Positions 15,380 through 18,207 of a DNA stretch of 64,000 bases are shown here, piece after piece. The stretch is taken from the NCBI GenBank assembly GCA_965544395.1, contig CBEUND010000001.1, positions 6,875-70,874 on the forward strand. The letters are read 5' to 3'. The notes under the pieces were generated by a model. It worked only from the letters and a program-made list of their open reading frames with translations. It made no database searches and had not been told where the DNA came from. Position 1 is the stretch's first letter; each line of letters begins with the position of its first letter. The translations under genes and the position numbers were made by a program. This stretch comes from an uncultured bacterium. Lineage in GTDB: Bacteria; Campylobacterota; Campylobacteria; Campylobacterales; Sulfurovaceae.

Positions 15380-15796
15380 TTATTGTCTATTACTACGAGA
15401 TCTGTTATAACTTCTATGGTTGTTGCGATAGTTGTGTCGATTGCTATATTGACTTCTATTGGTATAGTACCCATAGCGTCCTACATTGGCTCTATATCTT
15501 CGCCCTCTATAGTATCTATAGCCATTATTATAATAGTGTCCATTATAGTAGCGTCTTCCATGATAGTAGTAGTAGCCATTTCTATAATAGCCACCATAGT
15601 AGTATCTCCCACGATAGTAGTAGTATGGTCTATCGTAGTAATATGGGTAGCTATATGATGTAGCTGCAAGTGCTACACCTGCTCCTACTACTGCACCTGT
15701 TGCGAGTGCTTGCTCTTCAGGTGTACATCCAGTAAACATCAATGATGAAGAGAGTGCAATCACTACTGTAATTTTTTTGAAATGTTTTTCTAACAT
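15380..15796 (-). CDS. Lipoprotein with a Gly/Ala-rich hydrophobic segment and an extreme Tyr/Arg/Gly/Asn-rich C-terminal region
   Basis: Signal peptide plus lipobox LMFTGC. Glycine-zipper-like ATGAVVGAGVALAAT. I count 32 Tyr and 19 Arg in the last 92 aa. AAGGAG Shine-Dalgarno 6 nt before the ATG. Confidence 0.75.
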   Translation of the reverse strand: MLEKHFKKITVVIALSSSLMFTGCTPEEQALATGAVVGAGVALAATSYSYPYYYDRPYYYYRGRYYYGGYYRNGYYYYHGRRYYNGHYYNNGYRYYRGRRYRANVGRYGYYTNRSQYSNRHNYRNNHRSYNRSRSNRQ

Positions 15797-15845
15797 GAGA
15801 ACTCCTTTTGTCTATAGTATATCTAAAAACAAAGATATTGTCTAT

Positions 15846-16004
15846 CTATAGTCCAAATAGTCTCAGCTTAAGATGGTGGAACCAAGATCTCTTTTTCTCT
15901 ACTTGAGGCTCCAGCTCTTGTTGTTTTTCTTGAGCTATTTCTAAACCTTTTGTAAGCAACCATTTAGCTCTTTTGAGTTTCTCTGCTCTAAAATTACTCT
16001 GCAT
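15846..16004 (-). CDS. Untracked 52-aa helical, charged small ORF overlapping the 3' end of the MotB-like gene
   Basis: Hand translation: MQSNFRAEKLKRAKWLLTKGLEIAQEKQQELEPQVEKKRSWFHHLKLRLFGL*. The ATG lies 11 nt inside the upstream gene, and AGAAGG sits 6 nt upstream. Below the 60-aa cutoff of the ORF track. Confidence 0.45.
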   Translation of the reverse strand: MQSNFRAEKLKRAKWLLTKGLEIAQEKQQELEPQVEKKRSWFHHLKLRLFGL

Positions 16005-17085
16005 CTAATACCTTCTCTATTTCATGCATAGCATCTTCATTTTTGAGTCTAAATTTGATCTCTATTCTTCTAGAAGCATCTTTGTCTTCTACACCATTTA
16101 CTTTTATAGTATCAAGATAGGCTCGTCCACTTGCAACCATCAATGGCTTGATATTATATTTCTCTGTAAACTTAAGTGTCAAGAGATAATTCATCACGGC
16201 AAACGCTCTTTGCTGTGATAGATCAAGATTGTAAAGATAGGAACCATCACTATCCGTATGTCCTTCAATGATGACCTTATCCAAGTGAGGTCGTATAGTA
16301 GGATTGGTCACTAATGTACTGATATACTCTTCAAATGCCTCTTTGAGTGTACCTTTTGCCTCCTCTTTGAGCTCGGCACTCCCTTTATCAAAAAAGATAT
16401 TTGAAGATAATCGTAACGAACCATTTTTAGAATCTATTGAGATTTTATCCCCTAGCTCCTCTTTGAGTGCAGCAATCACTTTGACTTTCATCCCCGTCAA
16501 ATTTTTAATCTTCGCTTTTTGGCTTTGAAGACTTTGGAGAATTCTATTATAATTTGTCTCTTTCTCATCGAGAGCATTCATAAGTTTGAGCATCTTTTTG
16601 TCTTTGAGTTTGATACTCTTGTTGGCATCTGTCATTTGATTGGAGAGGATCACTACTTTGTCTCTATACTTCTTCAACTCAGCCTTACTTTTTTTCTCCT
16701 CAATCTTCTTTTTATCAAGTAAATTTTGCATAATTACAATTTTATTATTGAGTTCATCTCTCTGTGTATTTGTGATGAGGAGTAATTTATTCAATTTTTT
16801 TATCTCTTCATCTTTGAAGTTGATAACACTTTTTTGTTTTTTGATTGTATCGTTTTTGACTTTTATTTCAGTTTTTCGTGCATGTAAATTCTTTTTTTGT
16901 TCTTTGAGCTCTATCTCTATATTACTCAATCTTCTCTCTTTTTCAGTAAGATGACTTTTGAGTATGATCGACTTGGAGACGATAGTACCTATCAAAAGTA
17001 TAAAGACAAATAACAATCCAGCCATCAAATCTGCATAAGAGATCCAAAAATTGCTAGAGTCACTACTCTTCTCTTTTGTAAACAT
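15994..17085 (-). CDS. MotB-like protein: N-terminal TM with conserved Asp, approximately 190-aa coiled coil, C-terminal OmpA-type peptidoglycan-binding domain
   Basis: WISYADLMAGLLFVFILL (MotB/ZorB/PomB-type plug and TM with Asp19). K/E-rich heptad-like middle region. IIEGHTDSDGSYLYNLDLSQQRA...ASRRIEIKF OmpA_C motif. Confidence 0.85.
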   Translation of the reverse strand: MFTKEKSSDSSNFWISYADLMAGLLFVFILLIGTIVSKSIILKSHLTEKERRLSNIEIELKEQKKNLHARKTEIKVKNDTIKKQKSVINFKDEEIKKLNKLLLITNTQRDELNNKIVIMQNLLDKKKIEEKKSKAELKKYRDKVVILSNQMTDANKSIKLKDKKMLKLMNALDEKETNYNRILQSLQSQKAKIKNLTGMKVKVIAALKEELGDKISIDSKNGSLRLSSNIFFDKGSAELKEEAKGTLKEAFEEYISTLVTNPTIRPHLDKVIIEGHTDSDGSYLYNLDLSQQRAFAVMNYLLTLKFTEKYNIKPLMVASGRAYLDTIKVNGVEDKDASRRIEIKFRLKNEDAMHEIEKVLDAE

Positions 17086-18207
17086 CTACTTTTCTGCTCT
17101 TTTTTCTTTATTATATTTCTCAAGTTGTAGTTTTCTCTGTATATCTCTATTTTGTTCACTTAAAAGAAAAGCAAAATCACCCAATTTTTCAACGATCTGT
17201 CCCACTTCGGAGTCGATTTTCTCAAAAGTATGCTCTACTGTCCCATCAAAACGATCAAGCGATTTGTGTAATTTCTCACTACTTTTACTAAAATCTTCAA
17301 TATTGGTTTTGATATGGGCAACTGCATTGATACTCTCTTCTCGACTCTGTACCATCTCTAGTGTCTCTCTGAGCTCTTTTGATGCGACTTGCATATTGTT
17401 ACTCAAAAGTGTAAAACTACTTGTAGTATCATCAATAATGGTTTTATAATTTTTCATATATTGTTCGTTGAGATCTTTGATGAAATCCAGATTGAATGTC
17501 TCTTTGAGCGTTTCGATTATCTGCTGATCTTTTAATTCACTCTGTATATGTTGGTGTTTGATGAGTTCACTCTTTTTCCATATTCTCCTGTTGTATATTC
17601 GCTCAAGGTCATGGATGTTTTTCTCTATTTTAGAACTCCCTCTCTTCTCGAAATATATCCAAAGAAGTGATAAAAATATCCCATATATAGAGGCATAAAA
17701 TGCTGTACCAATTCCTGATAAAAGAAGACTAATTTCTTGATCAAGAGCATCTAAATCTTTGACTGTAAAGTCAGGCATCGAAAGAGCAATCGCGATAAAA
17801 GTCCCCAAGATACCCAACATAGGGAAGACACTTGGAGCCACCTTTGAAAAGTTATCATTTCTTAAATCTTTGTAATACTCTGCCATAAATTCATGAAGAT
17901 TGAGTGTCGATTTTGTCTCTCCCATAATCTTCAATGCATTATCCTCCATAGCTCTTTGAAGATCCACTTCCATATGTGCGAATGAACCTCTCATTTGGCA
18001 TACAGCATAGTTAGCATTATGTTTGATAAAAAATGTAAATATAAAAAATATAAAAAATATTATCAGGAGTGTATGCATCTCCACATGAAGTGGTACAAAT
18101 CCAAAATGAGCAACAAGCAATCCAAATATAAATAAGAATGGAAAAATAAATATTGCGAAAAATTGTGAAAAACAGTGTTGTTCATCCACTGTATCTGATG
18201 ATATCAT
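17086..18207 (-). CDS. MotA/ExbB/TolQ-family proton-channel protein with approximately 185-aa cytoplasmic coiled-coil tail
   Basis: Two N-terminal TM helices, a loop, then the channel signature MLGILGTFIAIALSM...LLLSGIGTAFYASIYGIFLSLLW. The C-terminal half is charged and helical. Its stop TAG directly abuts the ATG of the MotB-like gene. Confidence 0.8.
   Translation of the reverse strand: MISSDTVDEQHCFSQFFAIFIFPFLFIFGLLVAHFGFVPLHVEMHTLLIIFFIFFIFTFFIKHNANYAVCQMRGSFAHMEVDLQRAMEDNALKIMGETKSTLNLHEFMAEYYKDLRNDNFSKVAPSVFPMLGILGTFIAIALSMPDFTVKDLDALDQEISLLLSGIGTAFYASIYGIFLSLLWIYFEKRGSSKIEKNIHDLERIYNRRIWKKSELIKHQHIQSELKDQQIIETLKETFNLDFIKDLNEQYMKNYKTIIDDTTSSFTLLSNNMQVASKELRETLEMVQSREESINAVAHIKTNIEDFSKSSEKLHKSLDRFDGTVEHTFEKIDSEVGQIVEKLGDFAFLLSEQNRDIQRKLQLEKYNKEKRAEK

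Follow-up and report, generated by a model that had tools for sequence, protein, structure and literature searches.

What does an ion-driven membrane motor of the Zorya type do at a locus where none of the Zorya effectors accompanies it? This question is raised by a 64,000-nucleotide stretch of DNA from an uncultured Sulfurovaceae bacterium (contig CBEUND010000001.1, positions 6,875 to 70,874; hereafter the window), in which four open reading frames (ORFs) are co-oriented on the minus strand at positions 15380-18207. They encode, in this order, a channel subunit (A), a subunit with a peptidoglycan (PG)-binding domain (B), a small basic protein and a lipoprotein. The TAG stop codon of A directly abuts the ATG of B, and the small ORF overlaps the end of B by 11 nt (ATGCAGAGTAA). 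Shine-Dalgarno-like sequences precede A (GAGGAAG), the small ORF (GAGAAGG) and the lipoprotein gene (AAGGAG), but only a weak one precedes B. A preliminary description had given the four co-directional genes with their domains, the abutment and the overlap, all of which were confirmed, although it named no strand; its statement that every gene has a Shine-Dalgarno sequence holds clearly for all of them except B. On balance, the locus probably encodes, though we lean to this by no more than a little, a ZorAB-type ion-driven membrane motor of a Campylobacterota-wide, lineage-tracking family, constitutively anchored and with a putative housekeeping output.

The A subunit (373 aa; 17086..18207) was assigned as a ZorA-type channel subunit of the MotA/ExbB family from its ORF and from Pfam, PADLOC, PDB and Foldseek comparisons. 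The MotA_ExbB domain (PF01618) was recognized over residues 109-202 with 39 bits, the gathering cut-off being 22.9, and the top PADLOC match was the ZorA2 model PDLC00635 (E = 1.1e-20). Among the NCBIfam models those of ZorA and ZorB ranked first for the pair, below their curated cut-offs (46 vs 100 and 78 vs 400, respectively). The MotA equivalog model gave 15.7 bits on A where 340 are required, and for the window proteins none of the NCBIfam models of TolQ or ExbB came up at E <= 1. When PDB was searched by sequence, A matched ZorA chains only, 8VVI being the first (E = 3.5e-6) and Escherichia coli 8QYD the next, and MotA of Campylobacter jejuni (6YKM) was not matched at E <= 1.

The AlphaFold2 model of A (predicted local distance difference test, pLDDT, 72.6) displays 2+2 transmembrane (TM) helices, at residues 13-34, 44-61, 118-142 and 152-208. 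The N-terminal hairpin TM1-TM2 comprises residues 13-61 (18025..18171) and is followed by a membrane-proximal cytoplasmic insert (residues 62-117; 17857..18024) with a beta-hairpin at 91-100. Residues 118-189 (17641..17856) form the channel helices TM3-TM4 (FPMLGILGTF...GTAFYASIYGIF). TM4 runs straight into a helical cytoplasmic tail (residues 190-373; 17089..17640) of ~184 aa with 31 K/R and 34 D/E, whose helices span 212-237, 240-286, 291-318 and 325-372. Foldseek comparison of this model placed ZorA at ranks 1-7, with TolQ and ExbB next, and no MotA appeared in the top 50. A beta-sheet in the membrane-proximal cytoplasmic domain has been described as unique to Zorya-type proteins in a study whose MotAB phylogeny left out the ZorAB group (PMC12505986). 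In the family alignments P23, H45 and the H63-N-A just past the TM hairpin are conserved, and T136 and S173, in the channel helices, are invariant or nearly so. By a hand count on the PDB alignment, the latter correspond to T147 and S184 of E. coli ZorA (EcZorA), which have been named as ion-selectivity residues (Hu et al.). The A subunit is, as a result of all these data, a ZorA homologue with Thr/Ser ion-pathway residues and the Zorya-type cytoplasmic beta-hairpin. Its tail, of variable length among family members, is indeed shorter than that of known ZorA, as had been suspected (~184 vs ~280-500 aa).

The B subunit (363 aa; 15994..17085) is of the ZorB1 type with an inserted coiled-coil stalk, according to PADLOC, PDB and its collinearity with a short ZorB from a metagenomic relative (locus L089, described below). 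Its best PADLOC match was the ZorB1 model PDLC00609, recognized as two pieces (E = 3.8e-58); this model gives ~190 bits in each lineage tested. The best PDB match by sequence was E. coli ZorB (EcZorB; 8qyd_F, E = 2.4e-14). A single TM helix at residues 12-37 (16975..17052) carries Asp19 (codon 17029-17031) within FWISYADLMAGLL, which is invariant in the B family alignment and aligns with the Asp26 motif FWISYADLM of EcZorB. Residues 208-363 (15997..16464) constitute an OmpA-type PG-binding domain with GHTDSDGSYLYNLDLSQQR; Pfam recognized OmpA at residues 231-313 (E = 1.7e-13), and not an ExbD domain. The MotB_plug domain of Pfam remained below its cut-off (18 bits vs 24), as did the MotB-family models of NCBIfam. 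The motif Y-N-x-x-L-x-x-x-R of B (YLYNLDLSQQR) matches Y151, N152, L155 and R159 of EcZorB, needed for PG binding (Hu et al.). B is therefore homologous to ZorB1 and retains both the essential TM Asp and the complete PG-binding motif. With the best profile hidden Markov model (HMM) matches of both subunits being to ZorA and ZorB, and ZorA filling the first seven Foldseek ranks, the Zorya-like character first attributed to the pair was borne out.

What distinguishes B is the region between its TM helix and its PG-binding domain, residues 38-207 (16465..16974), delimited from heptads, spacing and conservation as a periplasmic coiled-coil stalk of the leucine-zipper type. In the alignment, nearly every heptad between B residues 39 and 207 has one position that is L, I, V, M or F in 100% of the sequences, and the heptad register is essentially unbroken from ~39 to 207, that is, for ~170 aa. 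The unusually long periplasmic coiled coil earlier proposed for B was thus supported by the heptad and spacing analysis, with a length of ~170 aa by register and not ~190 aa. The membrane-proximal part of the stalk varies in length and its distal part is conserved (LKD..LL.LLNALDEKET.Y...LQ.QKAKIK.LTG), the distal ~45 residues being kept from Sulfurovum to Campylobacter. The lengths of B in 120 homologues form several series spaced by seven residues. In 184 homologues we also counted the residues that separate the TM Asp from the conserved Gly in NLTG, the motif with which the PG-binding domain begins. This spacing has 29 different values between 39 and 319 residues, of which 21 are in class 0 and 8 in class +4 modulo seven, the other five classes being empty. 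By our own arithmetic, the chance that 29 values fall in any two of seven classes is ~21 x (2/7)^29, or ~3e-15. Indels of seven residues retain the heptad register, and those of four residues are the classical 'stutter' tolerated by coiled coils. Both the quantised spacing and the heptad layout argue for a continuous, register-keeping coiled coil. From these sequence data, the stalk is a parallel coiled coil that runs on without a break from the helix of ZorB and lacks flexible joints at its two ends, and the angular phase of the PG-binding dimer relative to the TM Asp is preserved. The Asp-to-domain spacing is 179 in the window B vs 39 in the short ZorB of L089, a value that also belongs to class 0, so ~140 residues are extra here. 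Among relatives the length beyond the short ZorB amounts to 95-280 residues, or ~14-42 nm if straight at 0.1485 nm per residue (own arithmetic).

The importance of such an insertion becomes apparent when it is set beside the published Zorya model, in which an inner membrane-PG distance of ~90 angstroms is quoted for E. coli. In that model the PG-binding domain of canonical ZorB sits directly on the membrane, and the cell wall is out of reach until a phage deforms the envelope. Once this perturbation has closed the gap, ZorB becomes anchored and ions pass, and the rotating ZorA tail recruits ZorC and ZorD. In the stalked proteins PG engagement would be constitutive, because a rigid stalk of at least 14 nm is inserted exactly where that gap arises. 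A stalk of 14-42 nm would let the PG-binding domain hold the PG permanently, and the motor, anchored in this way, would run on the ion gradient without a trigger and set its short tail turning on the cytoplasmic side. Through this tail, perhaps with the help of the small protein, the motor would then serve a housekeeping function linked to the envelope. By analogy with related motors, an A5B2 stoichiometry and rotation are presumably retained. The housekeeping role is proposed because effectors are absent, the genomic contexts are of housekeeping type and the distribution tracks lineage. A stronger version, that a branch of the Zorya motor family without a role in defence is met here for the first time, a Campylobacterota-wide housekeeping rotary motor that includes the peb4-fba-linked genes of Campylobacter and was made constitutive by a rigid, phase-locked stalk, is offered only tentatively, as an idea in which we have less belief than doubt.

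The pair has the traits of the 5:2 ion-driven motor superfamily, namely a MotA/ExbB channel subunit and a single-TM, Asp-bearing B encoded directly after it, and of Zorya it has ZorA and ZorB homology. The long tail, the linker-free ZorB and the adjacent effectors of that system (ZorC with ZorD, ZorE, or ZorF with ZorG) were not found at the window locus. Neither was the patchy, mobile or defence-island distribution of Zorya, though the contexts vary within the Sulfurovaceae. With type I Zorya (E. coli 8QYD and Shewanella 8VVN) the window pair shares a homologous A core, the Thr/Ser ion filter, the cytoplasmic beta-hairpin, the prolongation of TM4 into a helical cytoplasmic tail, adjacent A and B genes, the Asp motif of B and the PG-binding Y-N-L-R residues (GHTDxDGSYLYNLxLSxQR). 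In contrast to type I, the window A has a tail of ~184 aa instead of ~500 aa and an extra N-terminal TM helix. In the stalked B a rigid coiled coil adds 95-280 residues at the point where ZorB is linker-free, ZorC and ZorD genes are missing here, the NCBIfam scores lie below the cut-offs, and the family is chromosomal, lineage-tracking and outside defence islands, the L089 sub-lineage excepted. Type II Zorya of Sulfuricurvum kujiense (8VVI), also from the Campylobacterota, provides the best PDB match of A, with a ZorA of 378 aa in total. However, the type II ZorA lacks the N-terminal TM pair and the insert and has a tail of ~280 aa, its ZorB is short, and the type requires the ZorE nickase, which is absent here. 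MotAB, represented by C. jejuni 6YKM, has in common with the window pair the 5:2 superfamily, the TM Asp, the OmpA-like PG anchor and the A-B operon, but MotB has a plug and a flexible linker, and MotA a FliG-binding loop and no tail. TolQR and ExbBD differ in that the window B has an OmpA domain and not an ExbD domain. Membership of the flagellar stators or of TolQR/ExbBD was therefore not supported by either sequence or fold, and the pair is neither a flagellar stator nor a Tol/Exb paralogue, the outcomes that the preliminary description had named as its own refutation; the HMM, PDB and Foldseek results agree in this.

An exhaustive family search among representatives at 50% identity yielded 52 clusters at E < 1e-30 with full-length matches, followed, after a drop, by long ZorA-like proteins at E = 1e-13 to 1e-9. 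The relatives of the window A were Sulfurovum-like, and named members included a metagenome-assembled genome of Sulfurimonas autotrophica and many Campylobacter species. In a scan of one genome per species, 522 genomes encode a relative, the best 80 all being Sulfurovaceae or Nitratifractor. Across these loci A and B are neighbours in 81 of 83, the remaining two ending at contig edges, and the small ORF begins at the stop of B in 66 of the 70 loci with that stop on the contig, nearly always with the 11-nt overlap. The lipoprotein gene, in turn, adjoins in ~8-9 of ~80 loci, lies 4-5 kb off in three and is absent from the rest. From these counts the conserved unit consists of A, B and the small ORF, and the four-gene unit initially proposed did not hold. 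The whole family is monophyletic in a neighbour-joining (NJ) tree (93.5% bootstrap) and the divergence of its members tracks taxonomy. The order nth, then a peb4-type rotamase gene, fba, A, B and a PALP-fold gene, is identical in four Campylobacter lineages. To judge by the matching synteny, this peb4-fba-A-B locus is presumably Cj0595c-Cj0600 of C. jejuni NCTC 11168, A and B probably being Cj0598 and Cj0599. The sole mention found in the literature is of Cj0598 as a hypothetical protein of unknown function. No family member was present on the PLSDB plasmids or IMG/VR viral contigs searched, and tblastn of A and B on plasmids gave only true Zorya ZorA (~25% identity) and one Nostoc OmpA/MotB gene.

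No effector-like gene recurs beside A-B in 78 loci, and the downstream genes in Campylobacter and in two further loci (L087, from Sulfurimonas, and L088) had no PADLOC match. At the window locus, the small ORF and the lipoprotein had no PADLOC match either and the flanks are housekeeping genes, so the absence of an adjacent Zorya effector noted beforehand stands. The commonest neighbours in Sulfurovaceae are a DUF2201/VWA-like gene (27 loci), MltG/YceG (20), mnmA (16), L,D-transpeptidases (10) and MurA (8). In one locus, L091, the genes atpC, tolQ, tolR, tolA, tolB, pal, ybgF and a slyD-like gene are followed by A, B and the small ORF, and then by fabD and lpxB; from this gene order, the trio coexists with a full Tol-Pal system.

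One sub-lineage (P0132, P0135 and locus L089, the last on a metagenomic Campylobacterota-like contig) departs from this picture, with an A of 581-697 aa bearing a long tail and a B of 219 aa. The 219-aa B of L089 matches the same ZorB1 model end to end and is collinear with the window B save for the coiled coil. Its A (581 aa) has the N-terminal TM pair and a tail of ~390 aa, and its core is 44-53% identical to the stalked members and 20-24% to other ZorA-like proteins. L089 thus resembles the window locus in its ZorB1-model B, in the heptad phase of its spacing and in the N-terminal TM pair of A, and differs from it in the long A tail, the stalkless B, a ZorC-like gene and defence-island neighbours. 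The gene downstream of its ZorB gave a weak ZorC/EH-signature match. The genes around the locus include one for an SNF2 helicase, on the upstream side, and those for nSTAND, FRG and PcfJ. The placement of this locus as nested in, against sister to, the stalked family received 55% NJ bootstrap. The whole of L089:1-13746 is an apparent defence island, with a DrmD-like SNF2 helicase (E = 2.5e-214 to the DISARM DrmD model) and the order helicase, ZorA, ZorB and ZorC-like gene, unlike canonical type I Zorya.

Several observations weigh against a housekeeping motor held by a rigid stalk. A defence-island Zorya-like locus inside the family makes a defence role possible. Within the Sulfurovaceae the module occurs in several different neighbourhoods, which could reflect mobility. 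The AlphaFold2 model of B has low confidence (pLDDT 56), with residues 117-153 unstructured; since it is too unreliable, the continuity of the stalk was judged by the heptad and spacing analysis. The stalk exceeds the quoted 9 nm of the E. coli inner membrane-PG gap and varies three-fold among relatives, which makes the geometry of the proposed anchoring less certain. Finally, no functional study of the family, or of Cj0598, Cj0599 or Cj0600, was found in the searchable literature.

These points have to be considered together with the other explanations of the locus. That it is a minimal or degenerate Zorya, in which sensing is kept and defence is exerted through distant effectors, the small protein or dissipation of the membrane potential, appears unlikely, even though by HMM and by fold the pair is closest to Zorya components. 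A long ZorA tail has been reported in all Zorya subtypes, every truncation of it abolished defence, and ZorAB was reported not to be a depolarising abortive channel (Hu et al.). The stalk, moreover, removes the very gap proposed as the trigger. The position of L089, nested in or sister to the family, speaks for this reading, but no effector gene adjoins the pair in any of the ~90 loci examined. Likewise, the different neighbourhoods of the module by lineage are countered by the fixed synteny in Campylobacter, a divergence that follows taxonomy and the absence of members from PLSDB and IMG/VR, and the dip in G+C content at the cluster is expected of a coding sequence for a K/E/N/I-rich coiled coil. 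In view of the lineage-tracking distribution, the fixed Campylobacter synteny and the housekeeping neighbours, the minimal Zorya-like sensor suggested in the preliminary description is less likely than a non-defence role. We give still less credit to a Tol/Ton-like energiser, whose B stalk would span the periplasm to a partner in the outer membrane or the cell wall, for example the Tyr/Arg-rich lipoprotein. At 14-42 nm the stalk is about as long as the periplasm is wide, and its distal segment is strongly conserved, but it ends in an OmpA-type domain with intact PG-binding residues and not in a C-terminal domain of the TonB/TolA type. The module directly follows tolQRAB-pal-ybgF in L091 and has recurrent PG-related neighbours (MltG/YceG, MurA, L,D-transpeptidases and AMIN); however, in that locus the Tol-Pal system beside it is complete, and at E <= 1 neither TolQ nor ExbB models were matched. 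Since the lipoprotein is adjacent in only a minority of loci (~8-9 of ~80), the earlier idea of a device acting on it lacks comparative support.

It would be very unlikely for B to be a passive tether or spacer with a vestigial channel part. A long rigid coiled coil with a PG-binding tip would suit this function and in one distant A-like relative any B partner is lacking, but throughout the family there is little or no variation in the TM Asp, in the Thr/Ser ring or anywhere in the channel core, A and B are always translationally coupled, and a spacer would need no conserved phase between Asp and PG-binding domain. A flagellar or auxiliary stator of the MotAB or MotCD kind, which the MotA/MotB-like domain pair might evoke, is effectively refuted by the scores of the MotA equivalog (15.7 vs 340 bits) and of MotB_plug, the lack of a match to 6YKM and the absence of MotA from the top 50 Foldseek hits. 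In 11-14 Sulfurovum loci FlhF-like and FliN-like genes do occur upstream, at a distance of two to three genes, but mnmA is placed between them and the module. Campylobacter species possess canonical MotAB, those bearing the module included.

A constitutively anchored motor of this family would be of interest for several reasons. To our knowledge, no bacterial immune system other than Zorya uses a rotary motor as its basis, and we know of no direct test to date of its proposed gap-sensing trigger. The stalked family would be a natural variant in which a rigid stalk bridges the Zorya gap, the phase being kept over at least 28 independent length changes. If this is true, comparison with the stalkless sister locus in a defence island would show that the presence or absence of the stalk switches a 5:2 motor between 'always anchored' and anchored by a phage dent, a natural experiment on the gap-sensing model. 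The immune sensor might then have evolved out of a housekeeping motor, or evolution might have gone the other way. The family has a wide distribution that tracks lineage, is uncharacterised and has members in pathogens amenable to genetics (Campylobacter spp.). Defence finders that rely on HMMs will report such loci as partial Zorya systems. Zorya II has been described as abundant in Campylobacter (Mariano et al.). We found no description of a stalked ZorAB-type family in the searchable literature, and that Campylobacter count may include such loci.

The third member of the module is the small basic protein of 52 aa (15846..16004, minus strand), defined by its positional conservation and its 11-nt overlap with B. 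It shows the motif M.SDF.P..L..A...L, a basic linker and then SLW.KF..LF, and it also follows B in Sulfurimonas (L087), L088, L091 and L092. Profile searches in Pfam, PADLOC and NCBIfam gave no family match for it. The ratio of non-synonymous to synonymous substitution rates (dN/dS) was 0.14-0.77 where dS was computable. By the overlap and these ratios, the protein is translationally coupled to B and under purifying selection. In Campylobacter, a PALP-fold gene of ~290 aa overlaps the stop of B instead (L084:9280-10179; L085:7623-8495; L086:9256-10119; L090:7287-8162), in C. fetus with an overlap of the ATGCA.GGTAA type, the same as that of the window small ORF. That the small ORF could correspond to the N-terminus of this Campylobacter gene was considered and rejected, the latter encoding a PALP-fold enzyme from its first residues.

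The fourth gene, a neighbour only, encodes a Tyr/Arg-rich lipoprotein of 138 aa (15380..15796, minus strand) with the lipobox LMFTGC, and a promoter-like site lies ahead of it at 15844..15816. The mature protein consists of 28% Tyr, 17% Arg, 11% Gly and 10% Asn, with repeated YYY/RGR motifs behind a Gly-zipper-like ATGAVVGAGVALAA segment. No family match was obtained for it, and it is conserved at 46-72% identity in 11 loci.

Other observations concern relatives of the two subunits. The NCBIfam entry PRK09039 ('peptidoglycan-binding protein') aligns with B end to end (residues 6-345 on 8-340 of 343) with a score of 57.8 against a cut-off of 362, a value that coiled-coil composition could inflate. 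This match hints that proteins of similar length, possibly with a similar TM/coiled-coil/OmpA layout, may exist in other phyla. Precomputed annotations assign PF28082 to some A homologues and PF27881 and PF24161 to some B homologues; these were not seen at E <= 1 in the Pfam scan of the window proteins. A distant A-like protein of 410 aa (P0221; L094:6001-7233), without a Pfam match and without B beside it, lies between valS and a two-component system and may be a decayed or repurposed relative.

Among the Sulfurovaceae neighbourhoods, the DUF2201/VWA-like gene (L001:6482-7672 and 26 other loci) lies on the same strand directly upstream of A, after a gap of ~330 nt, and in L001 a MoxR-type AAA gene precedes it. 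Upstream of mnmA-A-B, folK, a gene for an FlhF-like SRP54-type GTPase and a FliN-like gene are found (L031:1418-3453 and ~11-14 other Sulfurovum loci), the FliN-like gene with FliMN_C just at the cut-off (23.9 bits). Sulfurovum is usually described as non-motile, and the FlhF-like and FliN-like genes may be remnants or repurposed polar-landmark genes.

In the window, one flank of the cluster carries clpX, mreB, mreC, carB and a yrdC-like gene and the other an M16 peptidase gene, dapA, fabI, pgsA, gap and pgi; the cluster adjoins neither flagellar, Tol or TonB genes nor any gene for a Zorya effector. The four genes are the sole minus-strand coding block in ~24 kb of plus-strand housekeeping genes (4268-28444). 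Their G+C content is 0.31-0.37 vs ~0.43. Horizontal transfer was rejected as the cause of this dip, which fits the Lys/Glu/Asn/Ile-rich coiled-coil coding sequence. The cluster had been placed at the junction of two conserved synteny blocks, which did not prove to be the case: the carB/yrdC side is common to only five relatives and the M16-dapA side was found in 0 of 80 loci. In the closest relatives the carB/yrdC side is kept and the side of A is not, which suggests a local rearrangement at the A-side boundary.

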